This document shows, in pieces, positions 1-55,364 of a stretch of DNA of 64,000 nucleotides. Under the pieces are notes generated by a model. That model was not told the origin of the DNA. It saw only the letters and a list, made by a program, of their open reading frames with translations, and did no database searches. Each line of letters opens with the position of its first letter. Positions within the stretch are counted from its first letter, which is position 1. Source of the DNA: Cyanophora paradoxa CCMP329 (lineage: Eukaryota; Plantae; Glaucophyta); the NCBI GenBank assembly GCA_004431415.1, contig QPMI01000521.1, positions 1 through 64,000 on the forward strand. Reading direction: 5' to 3'. A program made the translations under genes and the position numbers.

Positions 1-2
1 CA

Positions 3-23724: not shown

Positions 23725-23747
23725 ATTATATATTACTTTAATGTAAA

Positions 23748-24574: not shown

Positions 24575-24599
24575 AAATCTCAGGTATATATAGAGAGGA

Positions 24600-24872
24600 A
24601 TGGATGATAAAACAAAGAAATTCATAGAATCTGCAATGATGGTTCATGGTGATGCTAAATTCGATTATAGTGAGACAGTGTATAAGAAAGCACAAGAGAA
24701 GGTCTCTGTTAGATGCCTTAAATGCAACAAGATCCTCCAAACCTACCCATTTAATCATGTAAGGGGAAGTGGATGCAGAGAGTGCAACAAGAAATCCTCT
24801 CATGCTTACAGAAAAAAGACTACATCAGGAATTGTGATAGATGATAAACCAGTGGTACTGTACTTTGATTAG
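24600..24872 (+). CDS. DUF723/CapR-like Zn-binding domain protein
   Basis: FIESAMMVHGDAKFDYS...KVSVRCLKC...NHVRGSGCREC. Confidence 0.62.
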   Translation: MDDKTKKFIESAMMVHGDAKFDYSETVYKKAQEKVSVRCLKCNKILQTYPFNHVRGSGCRECNKKSSHAYRKKTTSGIVIDDKPVVLYFD

Positions 24873-25018
24873 ATCTTTGAGAGAGAAATGAGGATCTTTC
24901 CCCATTTTCCCTTTGTGATTATGCATGTGTCAAAGCAGTTTGGACAGGTCTTGTGGTAGTGCAGCAGAATGATATCCACCAACTCATAAGGTAGCACTCT
25001 TGCTAAGATGGTTCGCAT
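24869..25018 (-). CDS. 49-aa ORF with F-box-like start and CxxC
   Basis: MRTILARVLPYELVDIILLHYHKTCPNC..., fills the intergenic gap exactly. Confidence 0.3.
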   Translation of the reverse strand: MRTILARVLPYELVDIILLHYHKTCPNCFDTCIITKGKWGKILISLSKI

Positions 25019-25058
25019 TCTACCAATCGCGTTTTTAATTTTTCTAAATTATTCATAA

Positions 25059-25460
25059 ATGAATACTCATCGAGGCTTCCATGTGATGCTGGATTACAAA
25101 TTCAGAACCCAATTAGCAGTAGGAGTGGAAGACTTGGAGACAACGACCAGGTGGTTAATGCAGTTCTTACAAACTATTATTCAAGAGCAAGGTATTCGAG
25201 TAGTTCACAAGCATTGCGAGATTTTCGATGGTGGTATTTCTCCTCCTGGTTTTGCAATGGTTCTTCTGCTGGATGAGAGCCACTGCACTGCTCATTGTTA
25301 CTCAAATGAAGGTATGCTGGCGATTGATATATTCAGTTGTGGATTAGAAGCAGAGAGAAAAACCACGAGAGTATCTCATGAGATAGATGAGAGAATAACA
25401 GGTGTGTTTTCAGGGTTGGAGAAATCGGAGAAACATAGAGTATTGCGATTTCCGAGTTAG
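25059..25460 (+). CDS. speD: Prokaryotic-type S-adenosylmethionine decarboxylase proenzyme (SpeD/SpeH family)
   Basis: GFHVMLD...F...PPGF...LLDESHCTAHCY...AIDIFSCG, with the ESH self-cleavage motif and the conserved CG. Confidence 0.85.
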   Translation: MNTHRGFHVMLDYKFRTQLAVGVEDLETTTRWLMQFLQTIIQEQGIRVVHKHCEIFDGGISPPGFAMVLLLDESHCTAHCYSNEGMLAIDIFSCGLEAERKTTRVSHEIDERITGVFSGLEKSEKHRVLRFPS

Positions 25461-25555
25461 TTGACACTGAGAAATTCAGAATTTCAGATGGTCTTACTGA
25501 AAATGGTCAGATAATCGGGTGTGACACCTATTTAATTGACTGTGACGCCTGTGAC
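25365..25555. repeat. Right terminal inverted repeat, part matching the window start (probably extends to ~26719)
   Basis: Reverse complement of 3-193. Confidence 0.9.
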
Positions 25556-25932
25556 AGGTGTGACACCTATTTTCAAACTTTTTAAAATTCTCACAAATTA
25601 CAGACTTCTGAAAACACCTGTCACACCTGTCACACCCGTCACACCCAATTAACAAAAGACTCTATTTCTTACTGAGATATTCAAGAATTTATTGTTGTCT
25701 TACTGAAAACAGTCTATGTGACAGGTGTGACACCTTCAAAATCCACCCAACAATAGTCGATTTCATGAATACCTTTCTGTCTTACTGAAAATGGTAAGGA
25801 GACCAGGTGTGACAGGTAGTTTAATTGAGTGTGACAGGTGTGACAGGTGTGACACCTATTTTCAAACTTTCTAAATTTTTCAAAAATGACAGACTTCTGA
25901 AAACACCTGTCACACCTGTCACACCTGTCACA
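25519..25932. repeat. Two subterminal copies of the palindromic TGTGACAGG iteron module
   Basis: Copies at ~25530-25652 and ~25820-25932, homologous to 8765-8910. Confidence 0.85.
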
Positions 25933-26045
25933 GACATTCTACCCCTCTTACTGACTTTCTCAAAAACAAATATATCTATTACTGAATATCATTTGAATAC
26001 TACCTGTCACACTTGAATTCAATTATTCTGTTTTATAGAACATAT

Positions 26046-26303
26046 GCAATCTAATCGATTGTTCAATTGGAGACCATGCAACTCTGTGACACTTTTTCGA
26101 TCTAAAATATAAATCCGCAATCTCATCGATTGTTTAATTGGACATAATGCAGTTCCGATATATTCCAATAGAAAATCCCGCAATCTAATCGATTGTTTAA
26201 TGGGAGATAATGCAACTCTGTGACACTTTTTCGGTGCAAAAATGTACATCAGCAATCTCATCGATTGTTCAATTGGACACAATGCAACTCTGTGACACTT
26301 TTT
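26046..26303. repeat. Four 63-72-bp subterminal direct repeats
   Basis: GCAATCTMATCGATTGTTYAAT...TGCAACTCTGTGACAC units start at 26046, 26117, 26180 and 26252. Confidence 0.85.
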
Positions 26304-26622
26304 GCGTTTTTCGATACAGAATGGGCGGTGGTCTACTTCAATACATGAGAGATATATCGAGTTTATGCGAATTTATGCAATTTAATCGCAATTATATCGA
26401 TCTTTAAGCAGTTTAATGTTAATCTATCGCAGATTTGTATGTAAACAACAAAGTACATAATCAATCGATATAAGATCAATTGAATCTATCGAAGTTTAAT
26501 CGAAAATATGCATTTTGGTAAACGCGTTTTCATTTTTAATACAAAGTTTGCATTATTTTATACAAAGTTTGCATAAAAAGTTTAAGAAATTAATCGAAAA
26601 ATATGTATTTTAGTATTAAATT

Positions 26623-26719
26623 AACACATATTGAAAAACGAATTTAAATCCAGAGTGAATCGAGATCGCGAAGCGATCGAGATGAACGAGGGATTTAAAT
26701 TCGTTTTTCAATATGTGTT
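26623..26719 (+). other. Terminal 97-nt hairpin with GCGAAGC loop and tandem G.A mismatches
   Basis: Perfect 29-bp arms 26623-26651/26691-26719, centred on 26671, at the AT/GC junction. Confidence 0.85.
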
Positions 26720-29700: not shown

Positions 29701-32416
29701 CCGCGCCGGCCCCCAGTGCCTTGCGAGCGCGAAAGGTCCCTCGAGCTCGAGCTCATTCACTGAGTCAAATATTTTCGCGCCTCTGTATCTTACAGGCTCT
29801 TGTCTTCCTGATCGATTGCGGCGGGATTCGGGAGCACATCTCTCCCACCGACATGCTCGCCGCGATGGTAATTATTATATTAATTATGTAGAGCCCACTC
29901 TCGAGAACGTGCCTCACTCTCCGGCTCATGCAGGTGTCGGCAATCGTGCACGACGTGGGCCATAGCGGCAGGAGCAAGTGCGGTCGATTCAAATATAATT
30001 AGGCTCCTTGAAACGCTTGCGATCATCGGATGGCTAGATGCATCGATCTGCAGCTTATACTGGAATGTCTTCCCGCAGCGGCTTCGAGACCGCGACGGAG
30101 AGCGAGCTCGCGCTCCTCTACAACGACCGCAGGCGCGCATCCCGCGCACATGTACAGCGCTCCGGCGGCGGGGCTGACGTTCGGGGGCGGGGCGCAGCGT
30201 GCTGGAGAATAACTCGCTGACGTGGTCCTTCTCGCTGCTGCGCGACCCCGACAAAAACTTCCTCTCCCACCTCGGCCGCGAGCGCGTGCGCCGCCCCGGC
30301 GCCGGCTGCGAAACGCCGCGAAAGACAGACTCCGTCCTCGCTAACGCCAACCGACGCGCGCGGGGCAGCGGATGGAGTTCCGGCGGCTCGTGATCGACAT
30401 GGTCCTCGCCACGGACATGGCCAAGCACTTCAAGGTGCGGCCGCGCCGGCGCCGACGAAGCCGCCTGCGCCCATCCGCCTCTGCCTGACTGCGCGCGCGT
30501 CCGATCGCGATCGCAGCGAGTCGGCGAGTTCAAGGTGCGGCCCCCGCACTCGCTCGCGAGAGCTCAGGCGGCCGCGTCCCCCGAGTCCGTATCGTAAACG
30601 TAACCGAGGCCACAGGCCAAAGTGCTGGCGAGCTCTCTTGGGCCGATCGCGACTGGAGGCGGGCCGCAGGGCTCACGCGTGCACCATGTCGCGTGCGTGG
30701 CTTTACTCGCAAATAAAATCGCGATTAGTTGTCGCACTGCGGCATTTAATTTTAACATTGATTGTATATGTAATCCTCTTTTCCGTTAGCGTGGAGGCCG
30801 CGGAGCCTGGCTCCGTGTGTCTGCCCGAGGGCCCCTTCGCCCCGGAGGACCGCACCCTCTTCCTCGCCATGGCCCTCAAGGTACCCCCCCTTTCCCCCCC
30901 CCCCCGCCCTTCCCGCTGCCCCCGCCCAGCCTCGAGCTCGTTTCATTTGTGTTTCAACCGCCTGCAAAGATTTCGGGCGCGCTTTCTTCCTCGCCGCTGA
31001 CCTTGCGGCAGGTGGCGGACATCAGCAACGCCGCCCGCCCGCTCCCGCAGCACGTGCGCCGCCCCGCGCCGAGCCCGCCCCGCCGCCTCCGCCGGCTGAG
31101 GCGGCTTCGTGGTGCGCGCGGGGCAGGCGGAGTGGTGCGCGCGCGTGAACGAGGAGTTCTACAGGCAGGGCGACGAGGAGCGGCGCATCGGGCTCCCCGT
31201 CAGCCAGTTCTGCGACCGCACCGCCGGCTCCCCCGCCACCACCACCGTCCGCCCCCGCCCCCCGCCCCCCGTCGCCCGCCCTCGAGCCCGCGGCGCCGGC
31301 CGAGCCTCTCGTGCCGCCCCGTCGCAGGCCGGCTTTGCCTCCTTCATTGCCGTACCCCTCTTCCAGGCGTGGGCCTCCCGCTTCCCCGTCGCCCACCCCC
31401 TCGTCGAGGTCCGCCGCTTCGATTGGGCCCGCGGTAGCCCTCGCACGCTCGTGTTCAAGCCCGCATGCGCAGCGCGCGCAGGCGAACCTCGCGCACTGGC
31501 GCGCGATGGTGTCGCCCCACCAGCCGGTCCCGAGCCGGGCCCGCACCCCCCCCCGCCCGGCCCCCGCCCCGCCCCGGCGGCTGCAGCCGCCTCGCCGGCG
31601 GCTTTAGCTTCGGCCGGCCGCGGCCGCGGCGCAGCGTGGCCGTCCCCTTTGCGCCCCTCCCGATCCGGATCCCTCCTCTGCCCCCTCCAGGACCCTCCGG
31701 CATCCCCCCCGCCCTTCAAGATCGGCGAGAGCGCCGGCGCCGGAGTCGGTGCCGGCATCGCGTTCTCCCTCTCTCGTTCGCTGGGAATCGACCTGGAGTG
31801 CCTGGGGGGGCCCTTGGCCATGGGCTCCGCGGCCGAATTCGAGTTCGCCCGCCGCCGGCAGTCGGGCTCCAGCGGGTGCGGCCGCGACCGGCTGCCGCTC
31901 GGGTCCGAGTCCGACTCCGATCGCGAGCCCGGGCCGTCGATCGCGAGCCGCCGCGCGTCGACCTCGGACGCCCACCGCGAGCGCCGCCAACCGCACGCGG
32001 CGCGGCCGCGCTCGAGTTCGCGGCCGGCGCACGCGGGGCGGCCGCGGCCGCGGTCGACCTCGCACGGAGGCTCGGGTCTGCCGTTCGCGATCGGGCACGC
32101 GCCCTCGCCTTCGCCCTCGTCGGGGAGCGAGCTCGAGCTCGACGAAGCGGCCGCCAATGCCGCAGCGCCGGCGCCGATATCGATGGCGCCGCGGCGCCCC
32201 TCGCGATCGCGGCGCTCGAGCATCGCGGAGGCCGTGCAAGAGGCGCTCGCCCGAGCCTCGAGCTCGGGCTCCCTCGGCGCCGGCGCCGGCTACAAGCCGC
32301 TGCTGCAGCGCTCGGGGCCGTCGGCGGCGCCCGCGGCGGGGCCGGGGGAGCTCACGCGGAGCGGACAGGCGGCGGAGCGGCTTCTCTCGCGATCGAGCTC
32401 GCATTGCAAGCTGTGA
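26752..32416 (+). CDS. Host multi-exon class I cyclic nucleotide phosphodiesterase with N-terminal hydrophobic segments (5' end uncertain)
   Basis: Exons spell YHTATHAADVLQ, HDVGH, LYNDRSVLEN, LATDMAKH, ADISN, EEFYRQGDEE and QAGFASF. Introns have CTGAC branch points. Confidence 0.85.
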
Positions 32417-33329
32417 GCCAGTCGACGTCGCCCCATGAACAGCTGCAGCTGGCCCCTGTTCTAATTTTCGATTTCTGAATTTCTGATCCCGGGGAGTCCC
32501 ACTTAAACAGCTTGCCTTACGTATACTACGTATACTAAGTTATTCTCGAGCCGGTTGTAGACCGTCGGACTTTCAATTTCTCATAATTACAATCATGATC
32601 ATGATCAGTTCTGCCTTGAGCTTTCGCAAAAGTTTTAAAGCAGTTGTTTCAACAGCCGTATTTAATATTTAGTGTGTATTCCGATCGCGAGGTTCCGGCC
32701 CCACCCACAGCTGCAGTGACTTCCGAATAACGCGTGCCTCGGGAGCTTGCCGCAGTCTTCAGTCTTTATTACCTGTGATGTAGTTTAACGCAGTACAGAA
32801 ATTTCAACGATGCTTCGGCCTGATGTGCTCATACGCATGCGCAGTATTAGTGTTCCGGCAATTGCCTACAGGATCCCGGACACCGGCATGCGCAGCTTGT
32901 ACCTGGCAGCTTGTAAAAGAATTCAATCCGGAAAGCGGCGCCGGCATGCGCAGATAAATATAACGCCTCGTCTCGCGAATATTGCGCGAATTCGAATATT
33001 CGTATATCATATACCGATATCGTCTCGCAAATACTGCGCGAATTCGCGATCGAATATTCTTTTCGCGCCCGGCCCTTATTCCCTCGAACCTCAGGGTCTC
33101 GAAATTAATATTGTTTATCCAATGATTCATTCTCGAGGGGCCCTAAAGCTGGACCTAATCTGCAATTCAAATCTGGTACTGGTGCCGATTGATTAGCCGG
33201 AGATGACCGTCGGACATCTTCGCCCCCCGGGGCCCGGGCCCCCTTGGGGCTGCGACTGCGATTTTAAATCTCAGCCTGCAGCAGTTTGTCTGCAACCGCA
33301 TGCATATGAGCAGACAGCGTGCCTCATGA

Positions 33330-36300
33330 TCAGTCCTCGGGGCCGCTGGGGGCGGCGAGGAGGGCCCGGGCGCGGCGGAGGCGGCCGCGGGCCTTCTCGG
33401 CGAGGGCGGCCCCCCGGGGCCCGGGCCCCGCCGGCGCCGCCCCGGGCTCGAGCTCGCGCAGCGCCGCCGCCGCGTCCCGTTCCGCGTCCGCCGCCCGCGC
33501 CCGCCCTGCCCCGCCCCGCCTGAGGCCGGCCGGGCGGGGCCGGGCGGGGCGGGCACCGCCGAGGGCGAGGTTGCACTCGGCGCGGTTGCCGAGGGCCGCG
33601 GCGCGCGTGAGGCGCGCCTCCGCGGGGCAGAACCCGAGCACCGCGCCGTAGACCAGGGCCGCCAACTGCCGCCCGGCCGGAGCCCCTCAGATCACAGAGT
33701 TCGAATGCATAATAACGGACCACATAATCTTTGTCTGCGAAGTGCTTGTTGCCAACATTCTGCGACCCATTGAGAAAGGGGGAAGGAGTCTTATTCAACC
33801 TAAAAGCAGAGGCCGGGCCTTGCCTTGAGGTTCTCGGCCTGGCGGGCGGCGAGGGCGGCGAGCCCCGCCTCCAGCGGGGGGCATTCGGCGGGGAAGTGCC
33901 CCCGCAGGCGCGCGTGCGCCGTGAAGAGCGCTGCGGGGCCCCCGCGCGAACTTTCAAGCATATGGAGAATTAAAAAAGAATAAATAATCAAGCTGGAGCA
34001 CAGTGCAACAAAGCGGGCGTGAAAGTGGATGTGGTCTCGGCGACTTGCAATTGAACGTTCTGTTAACGTTAACGGTGTTTATGATCGCGCTGAGCAATAT
34101 GGAAATCGGAATGAAAGCGGAGTTCGAACCAGAACGTTGACGCCGTGGCCAGGGACGCTGCACATGCCCTCTTCGGGGTTGTCCAGCCCGAAGAGCGAGT
34201 AGCCGCCGTGAAACGGTCCGCTTCTCCCGCCCATGCAGACAGGCAGCAGCTGCGCGTGCATATATGCGGCGTTCTAAATGGCGATCGCTCTTTCAGAGCG
34301 CCGGGGCACCCTCTGGAGGAGCGGGGCGTGGGGCAGGACGGCGCGCGCGTGCTCCGGGAAGACGCAGAGGTCCGCCAGGCAGGCCCCCAGCTCGAGGCCC
34401 TCCTGCGTGTGCGCAGGGGCGAATATACTAGGGGCCCGGCCGCGATTCTCGCGCCGGGGGTGCAAGGGGGGAATCTGGATCGAATGAAAGAGTAGTAGTG
34501 GCACGAACATGCACGGGGCAGATGTAGATCGACCCCGGCCCAGCGCGCGCGGCAGGTTGAAGTAGTAAAGATAGAGACAGATTATATGTGATTGTAAAGA
34601 GTAGAAAAGGGCTGATAAGCAGACGCTGCGATCTACAGGAGACAGCTGATAAGCGAGGAAGCCGAAATCTACAGGAGACAGCTAGCTATAGGGAGAACTG
34701 GTTCCATGCAGAACCGCGGAAGGAATTCGAAGACCGGAATTAGAGAGAAGTTGGTTTCCAGGCTTCAAGTCGAGGAAAACTGGTCTTCGCTAGATCCGCG
34801 GAAGGAATTCGAAGATCGGAATGAGAGAGAAGTTGGTTTCCAGGCTTCAAGTCAAGGAAAACTGGTCTTCGCCCTCGAAAACCTTTTTTTGCATGGACGG
34901 CCGCAGCGACAAACACGTGTCGCTGCAACCGAATTTCGGCACATTTTTGTTGCAAACTGGACCTCGAAAACGGCCTCATAGAAAACTTTTGGCTGAAGCG
35001 AGGGAACGGGAAGCAAGGGGGGAAGACCTGCGGTCTTCTTTCCCCCCTTGCAATCTAAATCATATATCAATTGTATAATCATGATGTCGATCAATATATA
35101 TTGATCGGCGTCACCAGGGCCGGCCCGGCCGACTACCTACGGGGAGTTCGCCTCACCGGCCGGCCGCGGGCTCTTGCAATTAAATATTTCAATTGCAAAC
35201 TGAAATTTAAATATGCAATATTAATTGAATTGAGCGCACCCAAACACGGGACTGGAGAGCCTGTACCAAATCCTCGGACTTCGGCTCGTCCTCTTCAACA
35301 AGGCAGCAACTGCGGTCCGGGGCGAAGCCAACTTATATGAGCAGAATACACGCCTGGGCTTCACTCAACGTCCTCACTTCTTTGCTGCACTCAATGTCCA
35401 AGAGGATGTGCGCTGTCGCCGGTCCTCGTCAAAGTGGAAGACGACCCTGCGATCGATATCGCGACCACGCATAGGAGGGAATTCGAAGCCAAAAGGCGAT
35501 CGCAGAGGACGGCAAAGCACAATTTAATTATAGCGCTAGCGACGCTGGCAGAGGAAAAGCTGTAAATAAAATATCCGGACACGAGGAAAAAAGCACGATT
35601 CCGATCCGGATCCGGGCAATGTACAATGCGGGCGGGCCCGGATCCGGAGCCCTCGCGCGCGCACCACTCGAGGGCGCCGGCGAGGACGGCGACGGGCTCG
35701 CCCGGGGCGGCGAGGAACGCCGCCTGCGCCCCGCGCGCCGCCGCCAGCTCCGCCCCGTGCCCCTCGTGCCCCGCCGCCACCAGCCGAAGCCGGCCCCCGC
35801 GCGGGGACGCGGCCGCAGGAGGCCAAGGGGCGGCGGGAGCCTCGGGGGCGGCGGCGGCCGGGTCGCCGATCACGACGGGGGCGAAGAGGAGCTGGCGGAG
35901 GCAGGCGGAGGCGTAGAGGGGGGTACTGTCCTCGGGGTAGAGGCGGGGCACGGGGCGGGCGGCCGAGGCGAGGTGCAGGAGGGCGGGGACGAGGCCGGGG
36001 TGCCGGGCCAGCCGCAGGCGGAGCTCGCCGTGCGGCGCCGCCACCGTGCACAGCTGCGGCCGCGTCAGGGGCGGGCAGAGCAAATTTTAGAGGCCCGGCT
36101 CGGCCGAGAAATCGAATTTCAAAGGCAGAACGTTTGTCAAGAAGTGAGCGACGGATTTGTGGGTCAAAGCGGTGAAGCTGCAAGAATATGCATAAGAGAT
36201 CCCCGCAGTCAGCTTGATTCGCACGCACGTGCACGCACCGCGGGGCGTACGCCGATACTCGCTTTGGCGTTGGAAACATTTTGCACACCTCCGGCGCTGC

Positions 36301-37691
36301 GCGAATATTAATCCGAAAACCAAAGCCTACGCGAAATATTTCACGAATTAGAGCATGCGCACCTTCTCGAATTTCTTCGAGGAGGCGATCGGGCCCGATG
36401 CGGGCCTGCTCGAGGACCGCGTCCAGGAGCCCCGACGAGAAGAGGCGCTCGGAGAAGGCGAGCGACGTGCGCCGCAGGAGGACGATGGCCAAGTGGATCG
36501 CTTCGGAGCGGAGCTGCGGGAACGTGGCCGTGGGGGGGTAGAGCGGGGTGCGGCGTGAGTCGCGACTGGCATGCGAGCGCGCAAATGCAGGCCATATCAT
36601 GACATAAATAGATGAAGGAAATTAAATAAAAATAACATCGCCAAGTGCCAATTAGTATGATAAGATATCGATGCAGATATTGCGCGCGCGCGCGAGCCTT
36701 CGTCACTCCTTGCTTCATCGTGCGGGCCAGGCTCTCCACGATGTCCGTGTTCTCATGAATCTTGCAATTAGCGCGCGTTCATGATCAAAAGCATGAAATC
36801 GAATGTTTTTAATCGAAGTATACGTATACGTAGCTATATCAATAAATACTATGATACATGCGCATGCCATGATGCAAATCGAAATCGAAACCAAATTAAA
36901 GCGCACGGAATCCAGTTCGTCGCGAATGGGGTCATAAACATGCTCGTGATCACGAATGTAGGAGTGGAGGAACTCGCACGCCGCGGCGGCGACCACTGGC
37001 CTCTCGTACGCGCCGACGAGCTGGCGCGCGTCTGTGTAGGCACGCGCGAACGCACACGCGCGACGAACGCACCTCGGCAAGCAATGAAAGGGCCGCCTTG
37101 AAATCGTGCACATGCTCGGGCCGCCCGGGCCGCTGACGGCGCCGGCCGTCTATTTTGAAATCTTCGACGATTGCACGCGCCCATTTCTGATCATAAACGC
37201 GAAGGTCAATATAAATCATAATTATACCGAATTGAACGTGCATGCGCATGCACATAGTGCACGTGCTCAATCGAAGGCGCCGCTCTCGCGAGGTCTAGAG
37301 CTAACTGTAGAGCTAAATTAAATATTAATCTATACCGTCGGATAAATATTAATCTATACCGTCGGACATATTTCATCGCGGGCGCGCGGGTCGCGATCGG
37401 CGCCCGCGCTCCGATCGATTTTCGCGCACCAGCTTTTCGCGCCCGCGAGCGCTCTGATCGATTTTCGCGCATGCGCACCAGCTTCGTGGCGAGGCCACAC
37501 GAGGGAAGCGTCATGAGCTTCTCAGATGCGATCCTCACCCGCTCCTTGGGCGCGCATTTGGCGAAGCAGCGCAGGCAGCTGCAGCCACGCGCACAGCGCG
37601 CCGCGGCCGGCCCCGTCTCGCATCCTTCCGACTCCCCTTCGCTGTCGGTGTCCCAGTTGAGCTTCGCGCGCTCGGAAGGAGCGAGCGGCAT
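33330..37691 (-). CDS. Host multi-exon helical-repeat protein with C-terminal TPRs, copy A (5' end uncertain)
   Basis: AENLK-NVGNKHF...Y...AAALGNRAEC...AERDAAAAL...KA TPR pattern. Inverted paralogue of 38060-41227. Confidence 0.6.
34430..35055 (-). mobile_element. Non-autonomous Helentron-like (HINE/DINE-1 architecture) insertion in an intron
   Basis: 13-bp subterminal IR TGCAAGGGGGGAA (34461/35040), internal IR forming hairpin 35013-35051, stem-loop 34435-34458, internal ~77-bp duplication. Absent from the paralogous intron. Confidence 0.5.
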
Positions 37692-38059: not shown

Positions 38060-41000
38060 TGCTTGACCATTCTTGCATGCGCAGCTTGCCGGCATGTACG
38101 AGCGGCCAGCAGTCGCTGCGAAGGCTTTGAAAACTCTGCAGGAGTACGTGCGCGATTTCGAATTGTACGAAGGCGAAGAAGGCGACGTCGACGGCTTTCC
38201 GAATGCCGTGCACCGCGGCGCCGCATATAATTACCCTGAACCGCATTGACCTCAAGCTTGCTTAGATCTACGAGAAAACGAAAATCCTGGAGAGCCTCGC
38301 TCGCGATCGCACGCTCAAGCACGGCGTGACGAAGGTTCGAATTCAATCCCCGCGCGCGCGCCTGCAGCGAATCGATATCGAAATTCGAATTCAAAGCTCC
38401 TTGTCGAATGATCGTCGCTGTGCTGCAGCTTCGCTTCGACGCGATTCACACCGCCGTCCCCCTTGTGCCGCGCACGTCGCTCGCGTTCTCCGAGCGCCTC
38501 TTCTCGTCGGGGCTCCTGGATGCTGTCCTCGAGCAGGCTCGCATCGGGCCCGATCGCCTCCTCGAAGAAATCAGAGAAGGTTCCTTGCATGTCAAAATCC
38601 TATCCGTGCCTTCAACAAGCGAGCGCACATTTCGATTTTTAAGTTCGGCCTCGCGCGCAGCGCCGGAGCAGTGCAGAATGTTTTCGAGCATCCCGCAGCG
38701 TGTGTCGGCGTACGCCCCACGGTGCTCGAGAATCAGTTTGGCCAGCCAGCCAGCTTAAACTTGAAATTAAAGTCCCGGCCGAGGCTTATTTTGCCCTCAC
38801 TCCCCCGCGCCGCAGCTGCGCCGCTATGATTCAAGTGTATCAATGCGACGTCCACTTTTGCAAAAAAAAAATGCGCCGCTATGATTCAAGAATCCGTTGG
38901 CCACTTCTTGACACACGTGCCTTCTGAATTTTCTCTGCTGAGCTCCTGCCCGCCCCTGACGCGGCCGCAGCTGTGCACGGTGGCGGCGCCGCACGGCGAG
39001 CTCCGCCTGCGGCTGGCCCGGCACCCCGGCCTCGTCCCCGCCCTCCTGCACCTCGCCTCGGCCACCCGCCCCGTGCCCCGCCTCTACCCCGAGGACAGTA
39101 CCCCCCTCTACGCCTCCGCCTGCCTCCGCCAGCTCCTCTTCGCCCCCGTCGTGATCGGCGACCCGGCCGCCGCCGCCCCCGAGGCTCCCGCCGCCCCTTG
39201 GCCTCCTGCGGCCGCGTCCCCGCGCGGGGGCCGGCTTCGGCTGGTGGCGGCGGGGCACGAGGGGCACGGGGCGGAGCTGGCGGCGGCGCGCGGGGCGCAG
39301 GCGGCGTTCCTCGCCGCCCCGGGCGAGCCCGTCGCCGTCCTCGCCGGCGCCCTCGAGTGGTGCGCGCGCGAGGGGCCCGAGTCCTTCGAATTCGATTTTC
39401 TGATCCGACGCGGGCCCCGCTCACGCTTCCGCCAGGATCATACTTGAGGAGGACTTGCACGAGCGCTCCGCCTGGTTCGGGGCCGCCTCCATGTGCGCGC
39501 TCGCGTGTGCCGGCGCCGCGTGTTTAATTTCGTATGCCATGCGTTCCGCCTGCACCTGGTCATGACCACGCCCATCGCCGGCGCTGCGGCAGGTGCTGCC
39601 TCCACAGTGCGGACGGGCCCGAACCCGGCTCGCTCGAGAACGCCGTGGAGGCCCGCGCAGAGGTGAACGCTCACCCTGGACGTCCCTTCCCTCCCGCCTC
39701 CCCCTCTCCCCCTCCCCCTCCCCTCGCCCGATCGCGACCTGCCGGCCCGCAGCAAACGCGCGAGCTCGCCGCGTGCCTGGCGGACCTCTGCGTCTTCGAG
39801 GAGCACGCGCGCGCCGTCCTGCCCCACGCCCCGCTCCTCCGGAGGGTGCGAAGCCCGCTTCCTGAATAATCGAACCCCAGGCTCAAGCTGTAGATTAAGA
39901 GAAGCGCCTCAGCTTTTCGCGGTCTGCGTGGGCGCGGATTCCGACCCGATCTTCGGGGGCTACGACGGCGAGTTCGACCCGGACTTCGGGGGCGTCCCCC
40001 ACTACAACTGGAAGGTGCCAGGCTGCGGTCGCTTGCACTTATATTTACAGGCGCCGATCACGCGAATTTTAATACATGCATGTGCTGAAGCCGCCCGCCC
40101 CCTACCCCGCCCCCCCCTCCCCCCCCCCCCTCTCCTCCTCCCCCCCCCTCTTCGCCTCGGGAGAGTCTGAGCTTCGGCCGGCAGCACGTCCGGGACGGCG
40201 CCGTCCCCCTCGTCTTCACGAACGCGCTCCTCCACTGTGCGCCCCGGTCCCTCTTTATCTGTCTGTGCCGAGGCGGCGCGGCCGATGGTGATCCTGGCGG
40301 CGGATCCGGCGCTGGCGGGCCGGGGCGCCCGGCCGCGCGCCTCTGGATCTAGATCTGCTGTGGGGCGGCGCCGCTGACCGCTGCGCGGGGGCCCCGCAGC
40401 GCTCTTCACGGCGCACGCGCGCCTGCGGGGGCACTTCCCCGCCGAATGCCCCCCGCTGGAGGCGGGGCTCGCCGCCCTCGCCGCCCGCCAGGCCGAGAAC
40501 CTCAAGGCAATTGCAAGCCCCGGCCTCTAGATCTGCTTCCAGATATCGATCTAACTATAATCTTTGAATTTCCCCGGGGGGCCCCTCTTCTTAATTAAAT
40601 CGTTTCCCCTTTCTTAATCAAATAGTTTCCGCTCTCTTTATTGATTCGTTTCTAGATCTAGATCTACTTCAAATTCCCCGGTTTTTATGGTTTATAATTA
40701 TTGAATCGTTTCTAAAGCGTTTCGCGCGCAGGGCATCGGCGACGAGCACTTCGCCGAGAAAGAATACGCGGTCCGCTCTAATTTGTCTTGCTCGCATCGC
40801 CCGGCCGGCAGGCCGGCAGTTCCGGCAGTTTGCCGCGTCCGGATCCGGATCCGGATCCTGATCCGAGGGGCGCCGGCCGGGCGGCAGTTGGCGGCCCTGG
40901 TCTACGGCGCGGTGCTCGGGTTCTGCCCCGCGGAGGCGCGCCTCACGCGCGCCGCGGCCCTCGGCAGCCGCGCCGAGTGCGCCCTCCTCCTCGGCGGTGC

Positions 41001-41227
41001 CCGCCCCGCCCCGCCCCGCCCCGCCCGGCCGGCCTCAGGCGGGCGGGGCAGGGCGGGCGCGGGCGGCGGACGCGGAACGGGACGCGGCGGCGGCGCTGCG
41101 CGAGCTCGAGCCCGGGGCGGGGGCGGCGGGGCCCGGGCCCCGGGGGGCCGCCCTCGCCGAGAAGGCCCGCGGCCGCCTCCGCCGCGCCCGGGCCCTCCTC
41201 GCCGCCCCCAGCGGCCCCGAGGACTGA
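38060..41227 (+). CDS. Host multi-exon TPR protein, copy B (5' end uncertain)
   Basis: Exons homologous to copy A, with blocks near-identical at DNA level. Confidence 0.62.
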
Positions 41228-41587
41228 TAGTGAGGCACGCTGTCTGCTCACTGCAAAGCTTGCAGCTTGTAAATATTTATAGATTGCATAGAACGACTTT
41301 GACTAATTGAATATATGAGTGCTGAGCTGAAGCTTGCAGTTGGGAGTTGAGGTGCCTGAAGCTTTAATTTCGCGTTTGGTCGCATGGTGCTTATATAATT
41401 GGCATCTGAGCCTGCTTGCCAGCTCGCTCCCCCGCCAAGACGCTGATCATGAGCACGATATAGATCGTGAAACGCTCTTCGAGAAGTTCTTCGCTTCGAA
41501 TCAAAACTAAGCTAATGGCGGATTCGAGAACAACTAGTACTAGTCCAGTTGGAGGCCTAGGGCCGTGCGAGGGGGGCCCGGGGTCGC

Positions 41588-45489: not shown

Positions 45490-46686
45490 ATTCGAATTCA
45501 ATGATTCGAATCCGAACCTTGCGCGTGCAATCGAAGCGCCTCCGCCCCCGCGCCTAGGCCTGCATGCGCAGCTGCGATGCAGTAGCAGTGCGATCTTGCG
45601 AGCCACTGCTGCGCTAGCGCTCTTGTTAGTAAGTTGTTTCAGTCTTAATTCAAGGCTGGATTCGGCCCTGGAAGGCCCTGAAACTTGGCTGGAAGGCTGC
45701 CTTAGGCTGGCGCCGTTACTTCGGAAAAGGAAGGACCCTAGCACTGGCTAGCAGCTGCAGTGGTGCCAGACTGCCACTGGGCCAGTAGATACGGTTATCG
45801 ATGATACCGCCAAGTCGGCGCCAACTCGATTCCTCGTGCGTGTCGTTCGAACCTCCTAGCCTAGTAGGCCCCCCAGGCTTGGCAGGCTAGGCCAGCCTAG
45901 GCGTCATTGCCGCGTCAATGCCGGCGCCCGTCACCGCGTCCAAGCGAGTTGAAGGCTTGAAGCGACGCGCGCGGCGCGCAGCCGCGCGCTAGCGCTGCGC
46001 CGCGGCGCATGCGGGCCTGCGGGGCAGTGCGGGCTGCGGGCCTGCGGCGCGCGTCGACTCCCGGAGTCCGTCGAGTCGTCGACGTCGGACGTCGTCGAGT
46101 CGTCGTCGACTCGTCGACTCGCCGTCGCGCCGACTTGCAGCGCTTGGCGACGAAGTTGGGCCTTACTGTAGAACTAGTTAATTTAGTACAGGAAAATAAT
46201 TAGTACTTCGCCAAAAATGCCATTAAAAAAAATTTTAGCAGCTGGTAAATCTTTATATAATTAGTAGGTCGGTCTTGACACTGTTGACAGGGCTTTCGAA
46301 TGGCGGAGACGGGACTACCCCTATAGCTACAAATTCTCGCGATCGGCTTTAGCAGGCGGGAAATATTTAGTAGATCGATCGCCCAAAAACTTTTACTACT
46401 ATAAATTTATATGCAGCCCACTAAATATTTCTAGCCTAGTGGCCCTAGTATAGCTCTCCAGCTGCAGTAGTTGACGTCGACCGTCGGACTCGCCGTCGAG
46501 CCGACGTCGAACCGTTGAACTTCCCAAATTTTTAAAACATGTACACGTGCACGGTGCACCGTGCACGTGCGTGCGCTGCGCATGCGGTGCGCGGCCGGTG
46601 TTGCAGTGCGCACAGCAGCGCACTGCGCGCGCGCAGCGCACGTACTGCGGCATATGCATGCAGGCTGATGATGCAGCGCTACCCGG

Positions 46687-48957: not shown

Positions 48958-49092
48958 TGCTAGCCGGAGACAGGTCTTGCAGTAAGTTGTATGACTTAAA
49001 GGTTTCTCGCATACATACTAGCAATCAGAGATTGTCTGCGATTAAATCCCAAAAAGTTTTCGGCCATCCAATATTGTAGAGACCTATTCATA

Positions 49093-52000
49093 ATGGACAG
49101 GAACAATCTGAGAGCTGAAATTCGGAGTCTAGCGCAGGAGCTACACAATCTTAGGTACATTAACGGAACATATTTGAACACACTGATGCGACTAGCAGAC
49201 CCACAGAGGGGAACCCACACACAAAATCTTCGAGCTAATCTTTCAACATTGCTTAGACTTAGACAGACGAACCGGCCGCAGCGCCCTTTGTACCAGTCAT
49301 GGATAACAAGTCATTTTGAGAACGAACGCAATGCTCGAATTGAAGCCACGCGAGAGTTTGATGAAATTGTAGAGTATGGGATCTCGAATTTATTTCGCGA
49401 GACAGGTCGAGGTGATACCGTGTTAAATTATACTCACTATGCATATCCGGGGTTGTTATTTACCAAGGATATTTTGGATATTGATCCGACTCCAATACCT
49501 GAGCGGGTTAAAGAGATCACGATTGAGTTTCTGAGAGAGCTGCGAATTCCAGAGAAAATAGGATCAAGCGTCCTAATTCGGTTTCATTTCGATAACTTTC
49601 GCATGTATCGCACTCAACTAGCAACAATCGAAGAGGGCACAATGCAGTCGCTCTTGTCAAATCTGGCTGAAAAGATGGAACAATGGATGCTAGCGCAGCA
49701 GCCATATGAAGACAACGACCTTTGGCCAGTAGTGAAAATAGAGGTGCTCATTGCAGAGAACGCTGCAGGCGCACTTGGAAACGTACCGAAACTCCCATTC
49801 AATGGCAAAGCCCTGACCATGAATAAGATCTACTGTCCGATTTCACCAGAAGACAACTGTGTGCTTGAGTGTTTTGAATATGTGAAGCTAAACCCTGGAA
49901 GAATAAGCCTTGATCGAATTTACAAGCAACTTCAGAGACTGGACTACGGAGGGATTAGAACACAGCTAGGACTGCGGCGAGGAATGATATCAGTTGATGT
50001 GCCAACGATTAATAAGCTGAGCGCTTTTTACAGAATAGACACCAGCGTTTTTGAGTTTTCGCAAGGAAAGTTTAAGCTGCTTTTTGCGACCGATCTAGGA
50101 TTTGAAAAACGTGCTCACCTTTGTATAGTCGATGTGCACTGCTACCTGATTAAGGATAAAAGAACGACTGAGATGGAGAAGTGTAGTGCCTGCGGGAAAA
50201 TGCAGTTCGAACTGGAAAGACACAAGCTAACCTGTCAGTTTTGTGCTAGATGTCGTTGCGCCTACAATCCAATTGAAGATCACACAAACAAATGCGTTGC
50301 CGCCATCAGAAACAAAGGTGTTATTGGAAGAAAGATTACTCCTTGCGAAAAGGAGAGTGAATTTACAGCGATGGATAGCGTGATAGGGGCTGACTTTGAA
50401 ACATTTCCTTGTGATGGCAAGACCCACGTTCCTTATGCTGTTGACACAGACATAATATGCAAGGGCGAAATTGTAGGAACCAAGATGTTTTACGGTCCTG
50501 AAACATTAAATCAATTCATGCAATGGCTGGATGCTTGGGCAGAGAAGACCACAGTAGTATTTTACAACGGTGCTGGTTTTGATCTGATATTCATATACCG
50601 ATGGCTGATTGAGAATCGGCCAGAAAGCCAGGTGAACGTCATGCGCTCCTCGGGCAAGATTAAGAGTATGAAATGGAAGACGTCAGCAGGAGGAGAGTTG
50701 ACGAGTTTTGACCCGTGCCTACATATTCAAGGTTCACTAAAACAGGCTGGAAAGGACTACGGCTGCACGACAATCAAAGGAGACTTTGACCATCGCAAGA
50801 TCAAGACGTGGGCAGACGTTGAGACACACAAGGAGGAATGGGGAGAATATCTTAGAGCCGACGTGCGATCGATGACGGAGCTATACATGAAATATTCGAG
50901 TACGAGCTTTGATCTATTTGGAATAAATGTGAATTCCAAACAAACACTTACAGCTTCATCAATGGCTTTTCAGATTTACCGGCAGCTGTTGAAGACAGAG
51001 CTGCAACTTCCGAAGTATAGTGAAGATCAGGTGTTTCGCAGGGCGATTTACGGAGGTCGCTGTTTACCATTCAAACGCAAGTTTGTCTCGAAGGGTCCAG
51101 ATGATTACTTGGTAGATCTGGATGTGGTCTCTCTATATCCAACCGCTATGTACTTTAACCAGTTTCCTACAGGTAAATTTAAGCTAATCAATGAACCGGA
51201 GGCATTAGAACGTTTTAGAAAGTTCATGTTAAGTCGAAAAATGGAGCAACTGTTCATTGCGAGCATCAGTGCGAAAATTCCTCAGGACCTTGTGCTTTCT
51301 CCGCTACCTCGTCACGAGTCGAATTTGGGCTGGTCGAACCTGAAACCGATCGAGCGCGAGATGTATACATCGGTTGATATCTACAGGGCGATAGCGCTTG
51401 GGGTGGAAATAACAGAAGTTCACGAGGTGTATTTATTTGAAGGCAAGGAGAGAATGTTTAAAGATTACATCGAGAAGTTATACTGTATGAAAGCTCGTTC
51501 AAGGAAGGGCACAGCTCAGTACGCAACAGCAAAGATTCAATTAAATGGTCTTTACGGAAAATTTGCCCAGAGGCCTGTGATCGAAACAACAGAGCTAGTT
51601 TCTAATTACCGCCGATTTAAGGAGCTACAGCGGACGTCTACGATTACAGACATCGAAATTGAGAGTGAAACACGGATGTATGTGACATATGAAGTACCTG
51701 AGAGCAAACGTGATGCTTGTGTGTCGAAGCCCTGTTTTATTGGAGCATTTATTCTGTCCTACAGTCGCGAGATAATGGACAGGTTCCTAGTAAAGATGAA
51801 CTCTTATAAAGACATCGAAGCCATGCCGTTTTACACGGACACGGACTCTCTTGTTGTGCACAGGAAATTTGCAGAGCTGGTGACTGATTGCATGAAGCGG
51901 CCCTACTCTGTGGAGGGAATGGGCGAAGAGGAGGCGAACAGGGTGATCTGCGAGAGCGAACTTGGAAAACTAGATTACGATATCCAGGGACACATTGTGG

Positions 52001-52419
52001 AGGCGTATTTCGTTGGGCCCAAGGTGTACTGTTGTCGGTACGTGAAAGCGAACGGTGAATCGGACGTGCATGTGCGTGCCAAAGGAATACCAAAAAGCTG
52101 GATCGAAGAGAACTGGCTTTCGAATGATCCGGAGATGAGGAAGGGGCACCTCCATTCTCGGGTTGCTTTGGAAGCGTTCAAGCAGATGCTTGAGAGCCGG
52201 TATCAGCCGGAGTGCAAAATAGAGTCTAAACTATCTCGTGTCTTCAAACCGAATGGAAAGCAACGCGAGGAGGGGATAGGTTTTAGTTCAATCATTCAGA
52301 TTCCATTCAGCAGAGTATTAAATAAGACGGAATACACAAAGCGAAAGATAATTTCGGATGACTATTACAGCACAGTTCCTCATGAGTACATCAGCCAAAA
52401 TTCAGGAGGCATACTATGA
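49093..52419 (+). CDS. Protein-primed family B DNA polymerase, intact
   Basis: ExoI ADFET, ExoII YNGAGFD, ExoIII YLRAD; YGGR, LDVVSLYP, KIQLNGLYGKFAQ, YTDTDS, GPKVY, RAKG; N-terminal DNCV...VHC vOTU-like region. Confidence 0.95.
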   Translation: MDRNNLRAEIRSLAQELHNLRYINGTYLNTLMRLADPQRGTHTQNLRANLSTLLRLRQTNRPQRPLYQSWITSHFENERNARIEATREFDEIVEYGISNLFRETGRGDTVLNYTHYAYPGLLFTKDILDIDPTPIPERVKEITIEFLRELRIPEKIGSSVLIRFHFDNFRMYRTQLATIEEGTMQSLLSNLAEKMEQWMLAQQPYEDNDLWPVVKIEVLIAENAAGALGNVPKLPFNGKALTMNKIYCPISPEDNCVLECFEYVKLNPGRISLDRIYKQLQRLDYGGIRTQLGLRRGMISVDVPTINKLSAFYRIDTSVFEFSQGKFKLLFATDLGFEKRAHLCIVDVHCYLIKDKRTTEMEKCSACGKMQFELERHKLTCQFCARCRCAYNPIEDHTNKCVAAIRNKGVIGRKITPCEKESEFTAMDSVIGADFETFPCDGKTHVPYAVDTDIICKGEIVGTKMFYGPETLNQFMQWLDAWAEKTTVVFYNGAGFDLIFIYRWLIENRPESQVNVMRSSGKIKSMKWKTSAGGELTSFDPCLHIQGSLKQAGKDYGCTTIKGDFDHRKIKTWADVETHKEEWGEYLRADVRSMTELYMKYSSTSFDLFGINVNSKQTLTASSMAFQIYRQLLKTELQLPKYSEDQVFRRAIYGGRCLPFKRKFVSKGPDDYLVDLDVVSLYPTAMYFNQFPTGKFKLINEPEALERFRKFMLSRKMEQLFIASISAKIPQDLVLSPLPRHESNLGWSNLKPIEREMYTSVDIYRAIALGVEITEVHEVYLFEGKERMFKDYIEKLYCMKARSRKGTAQYATAKIQLNGLYGKFAQRPVIETTELVSNYRRFKELQRTSTITDIEIESETRMYVTYEVPESKRDACVSKPCFIGAFILSYSREIMDRFLVKMNSYKDIEAMPFYTDTDSLVVHRKFAELVTDCMKRPYSVEGMGEEEANRVICESELGKLDYDIQGHIVEAYFVGPKVYCCRYVKANGESDVHVRAKGIPKSWIEENWLSNDPEMRKGHLHSRVALEAFKQMLESRYQPECKIESKLSRVFKPNGKQREEGIGFSSIIQIPFSRVLNKTEYTKRKIISDDYYSTVPHEYISQNSGGIL

Positions 52420-53518
52420 TCCAGAAATAGGGCTTCAGTCTGCCACACGTATTGCCAAGAAGTTGAAAATACCAGTTTCCAGGGTTAGAGAAGTGCTGGA
52501 GAAATTATCGACAGCGCAAAGATTTGCGAGGCCGCAAAAAGAGAAACCATTCACAAGTATAACATACGACAAAGCAGAGAAATACTACGAGGTGGACCTA
52601 ATCGACGTGACTCCGTACGCTAGAACAAACCGCGGTATTCACTTTATAATGAACGCAGTGGACGTAGTGACTCGGAAAGCCTACAGCATTCCAATGAAGA
52701 ACAAGAGCGAAAGTACACTCCTTTCAACACTACGGAAACTCATAGATAGTTTTCCAGCCAAGCCGGATATTATTCAGACAGATCAGGAGTTTAAAGCTTC
52801 AGCTGGTAGTTTGTTAGAAGCTGAGGGAATTAAGCACAATGCTGTGGAAGCGCATCGACCACAAGCAAACGGCAAAATAGAAAGATTTAATGGAACTTTG
52901 AAGCGAGTTATTGCACGGTATATGGAGGCATATGACACGGATAGGTACATCGACAAGCTGCCCGCTTTCTTGCGCAATTATAATTCGTCAGAGCATAGGT
53001 CGATTGGTACATCGCCAAACGCTGCAGCAGAGAATCCGAAGGAGACAATCGCGCGCAACGATTATCAGCGAGAGATCTACGAGCAGCAACACTACCTGAA
53101 GGAGGTCGAATTTAAAGTAGGAGACCTAGTTCGAGTTAAGCTAACCAGGAGAACCTTCGATAAATCGACAAAGCCAACCTTCTCGAAAGAAGTATTTCGA
53201 ATTGAGTCGATTGGGGGTTTTGGACCCCTTCTAAGATTTAAACTCGCTGGATCGGATACACCAGTGACCTACCAGCAACTTTTAAAGGTCCCAGTAGATT
53301 CAGAGGAACGTCGTGCGGGAAATGCAGCACAGCGGTCACAGCAGCGCAGAAAGAAGGAGCTAAATCTGATGCGAGAGAATTTAGATCGAGTGGACATAGA
53401 AAAAAATAAGAAGCTGCTTCGCCTTCAAAAGCAACTTGCGACAGCTGGAACTGTCAAGTTAAACCCTGGTGGAATATTAGAGAGAACAAAGACCAGAAGG
53501 CTAGTCAAAGAGCTATAA
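52382..53518 (+). CDS. Retroviral-like (rve) DDE integrase, intact
   Basis: YEVDL, IQTDQE, KIERFNGTLK, YNSSEHRSIG, FKVGDLVRV. Confidence 0.93.
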   Translation: MSTSAKIQEAYYDPEIGLQSATRIAKKLKIPVSRVREVLEKLSTAQRFARPQKEKPFTSITYDKAEKYYEVDLIDVTPYARTNRGIHFIMNAVDVVTRKAYSIPMKNKSESTLLSTLRKLIDSFPAKPDIIQTDQEFKASAGSLLEAEGIKHNAVEAHRPQANGKIERFNGTLKRVIARYMEAYDTDRYIDKLPAFLRNYNSSEHRSIGTSPNAAAENPKETIARNDYQREIYEQQHYLKEVEFKVGDLVRVKLTRRTFDKSTKPTFSKEVFRIESIGGFGPLLRFKLAGSDTPVTYQQLLKVPVDSEERRAGNAAQRSQQRRKKELNLMRENLDRVDIEKNKKLLRLQKQLATAGTVKLNPGGILERTKTRRLVKEL

Positions 53519-53780
53519 CAACACATTGTTGGAGGGACTCTAGCAGTGCTAACTTTTCGTAGATTCGATTGCGATAGCGGCGATTGGCCTCTAAATGATT
53601 CTCGCTGTTGTTCTGCTGGTATCTTGAGCTGGCTTCTATGTGTCGTCGGCGAAATTCCGGATCTTCATTGTAACGACGGCGATGGCTCTCTGCACGCTTT
53701 GCCTTTCGTGCAGCAGCGATTTCAGGGGTAACAACAATTGGTTTGCGACCACGCTGTTTAGTTGATGATTCAACATCCAT
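53505..53780 (-). CDS. Small basic putative DNA-binding protein
   Basis: RGRKP...RRRYNEDPEFRRRH. Related to 5916-6143. Confidence 0.6.
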   Translation of the reverse strand: MDVESSTKQRGRKPIVVTPEIAAARKAKRAESHRRRYNEDPEFRRRHIEASSRYQQNNSENHLEANRRYRNRIYEKLALLESLQQCVVIAL

Positions 53781-53889
53781 TTCTTTGGTTTTCTCGTCAC
53801 AAACAATGTGCGAAATCTTTTTATGGCATAAATCGCAGGTTTGTGTTGCGTTAAATTCCGAACATAAAATCCGAGATATAATTCAAAGA

Positions 53890-54174
53890 ATGGAAGCAGA
53901 CAAGCAGCGTTGCTGCGCCGCAGGAACAATTCGATTTGGGAAGTACCGCGGTGAAACTCATCTTAAAGTAGTGTTTAGCGACCCAAAATATGCGGAATGG
54001 TTGTTATCTTGGCCGCATCTTCGTGAGTACGACAAACGTGAATTGCAGCGTGCTTTTGAAATTTGTCAATCAAATGATCTGGCAACAGTAAACGGTATGC
54101 TTGACTTTGCAGAGCGAGAGAGGAAACCAACTGTAGAGGATCTTCCGGATTTGCCCGATTTTGATTTGCCTTAA
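53890..54174 (+). CDS. Small protein with DUF3820/ExoX-C-terminal-like FGKYRG motif
   Basis: IRFGKYRG...DPKYAEWL. Confidence 0.55.
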   Translation: MEADKQRCCAAGTIRFGKYRGETHLKVVFSDPKYAEWLLSWPHLREYDKRELQRAFEICQSNDLATVNGMLDFAERERKPTVEDLPDLPDFDLP

Positions 54175-54203
54175 AGAGATCTCAATCTCAGATTGTAAAG
54201 AAG

Positions 54204-54779
54204 ATGGAGGTCACAATTCCAGAGGTTCCTGAAGATGTGGCTTTGATACCAATTACTGGACGTAGGAATGGCAGAAACGGAATTGTTGTCGCTTATGCAC
54301 TAGTTAGTCAGGATGATGCTCAACGTGTTCTTGGATTCCGCTGGAGTTTACATAATTCTGGATATGCTCGAACCATTATCAATCATAAGTGTGTGTTCTT
54401 GCATAACTTCATCAGCGGTGAGTTAGAGAACGGATTGACTGTCGATCATATAAATCTGAACAAGCTTGATAACCGCCGCGAGAATCTGCGTTTAGCAACA
54501 CAGCGGCAGCAGAATTTGAATCGTGGCCAGCAGCGCAATAACACATCAGGATTCATAGGTGTTACTTTCCATCAGCGAGATGGTAAATGGCAGGCGGAAT
54601 ATCGGATAAATGGTCGCAAAAAGCACATCGGATACTTTTCCACTGCTGAAGCTGCAGCAAGAGCCCGTGATGCTTACGTTCTAGAACATACTTCAGATGC
54701 AGATAAGCCGTTCTTGCGTCTGAATTTCACAGACGAATCCTTCTCCCACCCATCGCATTCTTCATCTGTGAGCTCGTAG
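54204..54779 (+). CDS. HNH-AP2 homing endonuclease
   Basis: VDHINLNKLDNRRENLR plus SGFIGV...KWQA...HIGYFSTAEAAARARD. Confidence 0.92.
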   Translation: MEVTIPEVPEDVALIPITGRRNGRNGIVVAYALVSQDDAQRVLGFRWSLHNSGYARTIINHKCVFLHNFISGELENGLTVDHINLNKLDNRRENLRLATQRQQNLNRGQQRNNTSGFIGVTFHQRDGKWQAEYRINGRKKHIGYFSTAEAAARARDAYVLEHTSDADKPFLRLNFTDESFSHPSHSSSVSS

Positions 54780-55364
54780 AATTTGGCTCTGAGACGTAAG
54801 GAGATGCAGTTTTAACCTCGGCAGAGTCAAGCGATTGCTCGGCTTTAGCTTTTTCGTTTTTCAGATAGCGTAAATCTGGTACATCCATAGGTCTGTGCTT
54901 AAACATTTCGCTTCGCAACATCTCGCGGATCTTAGCTCTTTCTTGCTTGTCTTTTACATACGATTCGATATTAGCCGACCTCGCTTCTAAATCTCGCAAT
55001 TTAGCCGCTAACTCGTCAAATTGTGACTTTGACACCGTTGCTGTCTTGATTTTAGGCCCTGAATACCGCGCTTCAGACGCCATCGCTTGTAAAATTCTAG
55101 CAGCATCATCATCGATATCAGACTGCATTTCGTTTACAATTTTGACCTGGCTCTGTCGGTCGTCAATCGCACTGGCATTAGCAGCAGCAGAGGCGATCGT
55201 TTTAGCAACGGGTGCATTAAGGCGGGGTCACTAGCTAATTCACCGCTAGGTTCAGCAACAGCTGCGCCCTCAGTTGAGCCGCTTTCAATCAGTGGAGTGT
55301 TCGGCTCAGATATATTAACCTTGCGACGTTCCCGATAGCCCTTCTTAGGAATCCCGCGACTCAT
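54727..55364 (-). pseudogene. Core-like coiled-coil protein (one frameshift ~55220)
   Basis: Two ORF fragments homologous to 4720-5454. Confidence 0.62.

Follow-up and report, generated by a model that had tools for sequence, protein, structure and literature searches.

Along the host DNA of the glaucophyte Cyanophora paradoxa CCMP329, a three-base word X is often followed by its reverse complement X' and then by X again, which raises the question of what process writes such strings. The window analyzed here is a stretch of 64,000 nt (contig QPMI01000521.1). Its host block (~26720–48000) is GC-rich and intron-dense and sits between two elements of 40–45% GC, and the host exons showed a 99–100% match with the predicted proteins tig00020964_g1677x. 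All counts of X-X'-X strings, called scars below, come from this one window with a host part of ~21 kb, and exon status follows the source's predicted models and splice-site reading (splice sites and homology for the exon at 38301). The original prediction of a recurrent process turning X into X-X'-X was supported by the excess of the strings, by six duplicate pairs, and by nesting. We consider the scars to be excision footprints of a cut-and-paste transposon of the CACTA/CMC or Transib type, with a probability of about 0.6. Statements on published systems refer to passages of the cited sources. Coordinates are collected in Table 1.

Table 1. Scars, genes and elements of the window (positions in nt).
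Feature	Position	Strand	Remarks
TCGCGATCG = TCG-CGA-TCG	38301..38309	+	Conserved exon-like block; two codons longer than paralogue, in frame
CAATTGCAA = CAA-TTG-CAA	40508..40516	+	Paralogue empty site near 33820
TCTAGATCT = TCT-AGA-TCT	40526..40534	+	Paralogue has TCT alone
GCA-TGC-GCA	37469..37477	+	Local duplicate at ~37416 without the 6 nt
Nested scar, TCG-CGA-TCG within GAA-TTC-GAA	33040..33054	+	Local duplicate at ~32982 has the outer scar alone
Five-unit run	32039..32053	+	6 nt longer than local duplicate at ~31993
TAG-CTA-TAG in high-depth repeat	34683..34691	+	Weak: shorter form in a contig of one run of four
Same-register five-unit run TCTAGATCTAGATCT	40651..40665	+	Further runs at 29740 and 32593; seven-unit run at 40838
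Predicted terminal exon, phosphodiesterase gene (P0007)	31691..32413	+	14 scar runs
Paralogue A (source model P0004)	33300..37100	-	No Pfam family
Paralogue B (source model P0003)	38090..41260	+	No Pfam family
CACTA...TAGTG pair, 23 nt	46419..46441	.	GCC on both sides; post hoc, weak lead; remnant or chance
Polinton-like element 1	1..26719		Packaging ATPase, D5 helicase, weak rve match; scars near background
Polinton/Maverick-like element 2	~47900-64000 (scar count: 49000..64000)		Protein-primed PolB, rve integrase, ATPase; scars near background

The X-X'-X strings named in the original prediction were all present at their places (38301, 40508, 40526, 40651, 40838, 29740, and 32593). Alignment of the plus-strand copy (38000–41260) to the inverted paralogue (33300–37100) showed exact 6-nt gaps at 40508 and 40526, as expected if X had become X-X'-X there. 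The proposed in-frame exon insertion at 38301 also appeared as a 6-nt gap; the paralogue has C in place of this copy's first T, and the X-X'-X reading needs one synonymous change. This exon is absent from the source's gene models. Six conserved paralogue blocks, mostly coding, comprised 1277 aligned bases with 68 substitutions and 3 scars. When the internal indels between the paralogues were classified, three of the five were X-X'-X, and the other two were slips in simple repeats, one of 5 nt (CCCGC) and one of 1 nt (G). We set aside five gaps at block edges, which reflect faulty anchoring, and for 40526 we relied on the whole-paralogue alignment because the block there was mis-anchored. Six duplicate pairs (three paralogue and three local-duplicate pairs) differed by exactly the 6 nt, and the chance that a random 6-nt insertion yields X-X'-X is P = 0.0025.

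We infer the direction from X to X-X'-X from the structure and the excess of the long form, rather than from an outgroup; the paralogue proteins P0005 and P0006, from other contigs, do not carry the exon needed to polarise 38301. A deletion between two copies of X is possible for a single pair, but the excess of the long form is not so explained. In the empty-site scan, four of the eight candidates (33382, 33430, 40847, and 41167) were discarded as register shifts or substitution-only matches, and 5 of 400 controls were positive, four of these in GC-rich simple sequence. Self-BLAST with strict flank filters kept just four non-low-complexity host indels, one of them X-X'-X, because neighbouring gaps or mismatches exclude other sites. 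For the scar at 34683, the form lacking the 6 nt was seen in run X1 in a single contig (depth 4718 of 21062), at depth 3 in X15, and not in X10 or X19.

Two further paralogue differences were observed. One came without a gap, at 41226–41234 versus 33324–33332, with in-phase stops TGA-TAG-TGA versus the scar form TGA-TCA-TGA. The other concerns the exon at 38946–39384/35640–36078, which was 99% identical between the paralogues; neighbouring exons showed 85–88% and introns barely aligned. This pattern suggests a recent gene conversion of that exon.

Public DNA-run contigs spanned the sites at 29740, 32593, 38301, 40508, 40526, 40651, and 40838 gap-free, and at 80% likeness GC-rich simple repeats dominated their indels (best 12 of 126 indel rows). 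The records of these runs do not state the library type, and their source may be the window's own strain, which would favor a sequencing or assembly artefact. Against this, separate runs reproduced the cited sites gap-free, as they did the paralogue's empty site near 36720, scars were common to old duplicates and showed one-mismatch decay (655 vs 419), and viral DNA of the same window stayed near background. The probability of an artefact is therefore negligible.

Against a Markov background, X-X'-X was far above expectation in host DNA, introns included. The host block 26720–48000 contained 197 X-X'-X 9-mers (9.3 per kb) for ~17 expected, and 26720–46200 contained 178 for 14–22 (Markov orders 1–4). 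These formed 166 runs in the host block (~8 per kb); 145 runs had three units, a further 13 had four, 7 had five, and 1 had seven. The viral genes had been said to be largely free of scars, and this agreed with the counts of 12 in 26.7 kb (0.45/kb) and 9 in 15 kb (0.6/kb), slightly above expectation (12 vs 7 and 9 vs 4.5; P ~0.03 and 0.05 from 60 simulations).

The excess was specific for a word of three bases. In 26720–46200, k=2 gave 149 vs 93–148 and k=4 gave 4 vs 2–3; in a larger scope, the 4-4-4 class gave 7 vs 2.9 and the 5-5-5 class 1 vs 0.2. The k=3 control patterns in 26720–46200 (mirror, 38 vs 13–25; X-complement-X, 88 vs 11–18; XXX, 62 vs 16–44) exceeded expectation 1.4- to 8-fold according to the background used, less than X-X'-X, and we tentatively ascribe this to GC-rich simple repeats. 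Palindrome-centre spacing showed its sole peak at 3 (197 vs 53, scaled for palindrome excess), while the other spacings in the range 2–15 gave 30–67 vs 43–57. Lone 6-bp palindromes were at background (294 vs 308); most of the palindrome richness is therefore accounted for by the triplications. Partial footprint forms exceeded an order-2 background 1.3–1.5-fold in counts made without masking, GC-rich simple repeats included. Two other classes were rejected: 3-5-3 (64 vs 17) mostly disappeared after scar removal or with a higher-order background, and 2-2-2 showed no excess after scar removal with an order-4 Markov background (141 vs 122±13).

This size specificity bears on a replication template switch or polymerase snap-back, in which X would be copied, then the nascent strand for X', and then X again. 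Such an event has the same topology and requires no mobile element, and replication-error small inverted triplications exist; like ODIRA-type events, they share the direct-inverted-direct order of the scars (PMC13334657). These published events range from 7 bp to >10 kb, with a median of 148/160/148 bp and median 30-bp spacers, and are FEN1-dependent (PMC13334657), whereas the scars are 3/3/3 with zero spacer and a single size. Moreover, within this window scars were nearly missing from two of the host genes as well as from both viral elements, which makes a template switch improbable. A spacer-free palindrome is the product of an opened sealed hairpin, and fold-back synthesis leaves a loop. 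The original prediction had offered both hairpin opening (P-nucleotide-like) and snap-back or template switching; the first is retained, while the second conflicts with a word fixed at 3 and the missing spacer.

Removal of 163 scars exposed 17 more, compared with 0.4 in simulations. Of the 17, 8 kept the register and 9 were shifted; by our own arithmetic, about ten shifted hits are expected from random re-hitting at the observed density. Scar sites have thus undergone repeated independent events. Palindromic hexamers kept as binding, methylation, or splicing signals and then expanded by slippage would account for the same-register runs of 4–7 units (21 of 166) and for the excess of 6-mer tandems (28 vs 6). 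However, scar-in-scar nesting in shifted registers is not a product of slippage, and X to X-X'-X is no tandem duplication of a pre-existing 6-mer. In addition, 27 of the 30 testable word classes were in use, lone hexamer palindromes showed no enrichment, and the empty-site pairs largely refute this explanation, which is very unlikely. Target-site preference was non-random and weak. C preceded the word in 143 of 306 half-sites, compared with 101.5 in the matched set (P 1e-5; half-sites are not independent), and among the word classes ANG/CNT was low (5 vs 19.9) and GNA/TNC high (34 vs 21; P 0.005 over 10 classes).

Non-coding host DNA had been described as full of iterated products, and this was correct, but scars also lay in predicted coding DNA, where one terminal exon was as dense as intergenic sequence. 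Introns of the source's predicted models held 52 9-mers in 5804 nt (3.3 expected), and the predicted exons other than the phosphodiesterase tail held 16 in 4674 nt (4 expected), a count that is likely inflated, as one gene model seems to extend into intron DNA. The phosphodiesterase tail showed 19 9-mers in 723 nt (1.5 expected), and the intergenic stretch 32417–33300 showed 19 9-mers in 16 runs over 884 nt. The predicted tail of P0007 is 241 aa long and would be 207 aa, with no stop, once scars are taken out, so that scars make up 34 of 241 residues (14%) and likely lengthened the predicted protein tail six bases at a time. Six bases keep the reading frame, and scars are therefore frame-neutral and persist in tolerant coding regions. 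The tail is of low complexity, and stretches such as GAGAG, ELEL, and RPRPR come from scars.

Scar density varied strongly between host genes: gene 43270–45470 had 1 run in 2201 nt, and its downstream neighbour 45471–47900 had 27 in 2430 nt. The proposal that scars could date insertions was weakly supported by the viral elements, which were near background, but the gene-to-gene unevenness of the host spoke against it. This range means that location matters as much as age, and scar density varies too much to serve as a simple clock. The steady-state density of perfect scars equals r/9μ, which by our own arithmetic and under assumed neutrality gives r/μ of ~0.06–0.16. The Lunapark gene and its neighbour (41590–45470) were almost scar-free yet rich in the apparently intronic motif GTACCCC/GGGGTAC, and ~17 of its 23 occurrences in the window fell in 2-kb bins from 40000 to 46000.

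The scars likely behave like flank-hairpin excision footprints, for which CACTA/CMC–Transib membership is a candidate assignment. The inserted bases in the duplicate pairs were the reverse complement of the adjoining flank, with no spacer, and the spacing counts agreed. A word of fixed length 3 flanked both sides, and we infer from this a 3-bp target-site duplication, hence a transposase over a general host repair error. The length fits the CACTA/CMC–Transib target-site duplication of 2–4 bp (typically 3 bp): CMC elements make 2–4-bp and some Transib elements 3-bp duplications (bioRxiv 10.64898/2026.08.26.747230), and the CACTA element Tdv1 makes 3 bp (PMC3193017). The transposon reading also agrees with EnSpm insertions in Chlamydomonas lines, which were not depleted in coding DNA (PMC9977147).

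Under the transposon reading, insertion at a weakly preferred site would duplicate X. Excision would then close both flanks, which end in X, into flush hairpins without loss of a base, a form that the even and spacer-free palindromes point to. By analogy with Artemis, which opens hairpins mainly at +2 (PMC2175297), a host nuclease would open the hairpins 1–3 nt past the tip. The 3' overhangs would be complementary at their tips for any X, since both derive from the duplication, and in our model they anneal, fill in, and ligate to X-X'-X. Repeat rounds would give the nested and iterated scars that we observed, and 6-mer slippage may extend the longest runs. Frame-neutral scars would stay in tolerant coding regions and be scarcer in other exons, consistent with the densities in predicted models. 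A toy model with a 3-bp duplication, flush hairpins, and terminal annealing only gave X-X'-X at 79% of sites for +2/+2 opening and at 60–100% of sites for 1–3-nt openings summing to at least 3. It failed with +1/+1 (0%) and with +4 on one side (10–36%, partners 1–4 nt).

A source element was searched for in the window. No transposase domain was detected in the 71 proteins and ORFs scanned (29 + 42, covering part of the host ORFs), no convincing TIR element with a 3-bp duplication appeared among the matches listed, and no filled/empty site pair was seen in the window. An unbiased scan for TIR plus duplication returned mostly chance GC-rich pairs. The pair at 46419–46441 was the sole CACTA-like one with a 3-bp direct repeat; a match (≤200 nt) occurred in 1% of 200 simulations, with six motifs tried.

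Nearby repeats showed further features. A TA-flanked miniature inverted-repeat element at 46689–46926, Tc1/mariner-like by its TA flanks, had no scars inside. The high-depth TA-flanked repeat at 46166–46469 holds CAG-CTG-CAG at its right end, and its ends matched better by hand with this string removed (11 vs 8 of 13). Paralogue A contains a high-depth element (34461–35052) with 13-nt inverted ends, an internal 81-nt direct repeat, and flanks readable as a TGCA 4-bp duplication. The two viral elements, both with long ORFs, are Polinton-like but distinct from each other. Element 1 carries an inverted repeat (3–193/25365–25555), a 47-nt hairpin at its right end (26623–26719), and genes with C1q, F5/8, and H-lectin domains; element 2 genes include patatin and HNH-AP2. 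No loci related to the window were found in viral contigs searched with two viral proteins, or in metagenome contigs queried with the repeat pattern and the paralogue alignment.

Several observations count against the transposon reading. The scars are uniform, whereas hairpin footprints in the literature vary (28 types among 128 clones; PMC5873905), and plain 3-bp duplications were not in excess (86 vs 83.5). The 14 runs in a 723-nt exon and the many in short introns would need insertions that survived until excision. Element 2 is deeply covered by variant contigs, and of the 52 indels between variants of 46450–64000, the 12 with the best support were all 1–2 nt, with no 6-nt indel among them.

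Uniformity and predicted-exon density strain a model of lasting insertions and keep alive a hit-and-run or domesticated enzyme (a transposase-derived, RAG-like one or another host nuclease) that would cut with a 3-nt stagger and close the ends, once filled, as hairpins, with no element left in place. Each such event would produce the scar directly. The very high density, reached in 32417–33300 and equalled in the predicted coding exon, the uniform product, and the failure to find an element in the window all agree with such an enzyme. On the other side, X on both sides requires stagger fill-in before hairpinning, which the insert-then-excise cycle, by our reasoning, provides, and the host DNA looked at was only 21 kb. 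We know of no enzyme of this kind and rate it as unlikely, although ahead of the other alternatives. A bolder version, which is speculative and similarly doubtful, is that a CMC/Transib-type transposase, hit-and-run or domesticated, serves a glaucophyte as a dedicated mutator that forms hairpins. Its frame-preserving 6-nt insertions would arise genome-wide, ~1/20–1/6 as often as point mutations, and would extend introns and disordered protein tails by two residues per event, with no insertion that lasts.

Hairpin footprints have long been known, and the scars can be compared with several systems. Excision footprints of Ac/Ds elements (hAT) in plants and yeasts share flank-copied palindromic P-nucleotides, flank hairpins, and microhomology joining (PMC5873905, PMC4561436), but hAT palindromes are single-base-centred (PMC5873905) and their footprints varied, whereas the scars are even, have a 3-nt word, and are nearly of one type, seen as a standing genomic signature. 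The hAT geometry was not seen here: the 7-8-7 count was 0, 2-3-2 gave 168 vs 170, and 3-4-3 gave 35 vs 18 raw and 9 vs 4.6 after scar removal. Target duplications of hAT elements are 8 bp. HzTransib cleavage is RAG-like with hairpins, and hairpins opened chiefly at +2 would produce the joint seen here (PMC2175297; bioRxiv 10.64898/2026.08.26.747230). Canonical Transib differs in its 5-bp duplication (5-5-5 class near zero here), and V(D)J joints differ in being diverse and without target duplication.

CACTA/En-Spm elements (CMC: dahlia Tdv1, soybean Tgm9, Chlamydomonas EnSpm-3; Volvox Jordan, Idaten) resemble the scars in 3-bp duplication, algal activity, and coding DNA not being avoided. Jordan footprints are reportedly 3–9 bp. 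Soybean Tgm9 differs in leaving footprints of 0 and 4 bp (PMC4015899), and no CACTA footprint of X-X'-X form was found in the literature text examined, including passages of PMC2613891. PIF/Harbinger (mPing) shares a 3-bp duplication and duplication-derived microhomology that guides repair, but it has TAA/TTA-type targets and precise excision (PMC4561436), whereas the scars gain 6 nt and only 3 of 166 runs used TAA/TTA.

A standing 3-3-3 signature was not described for any genome in the titles and abstract openings searched, a scope with most subscription papers outside it. The word 'palindrom' was absent from the main text, as available, of the Cyanophora paradoxa genome paper (PMC6704402), and CACTA, CMC, and EnSpm were not named in the parts consulted of a methylation paper covering this species (PMC12344493). 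If the transposon reading is true, the genome would be a dense machine-readable record of past cut-and-paste activity, which escapes repeat annotation because the elements themselves have disappeared. The geometry of the scars would report on the chemistry of the transposase (flush hairpin, 3-bp stagger) and on end-joining in the host, neither of which, to our knowledge, has so far been studied in the glaucophyte lineage. Palindrome enrichment in such genomes need not signal binding sites, and indel models for such lineages would miss a major class. The long-standing view of footprints as a driver of sequence and protein evolution would also receive numbers, with 14% of one predicted protein tail made of scars.
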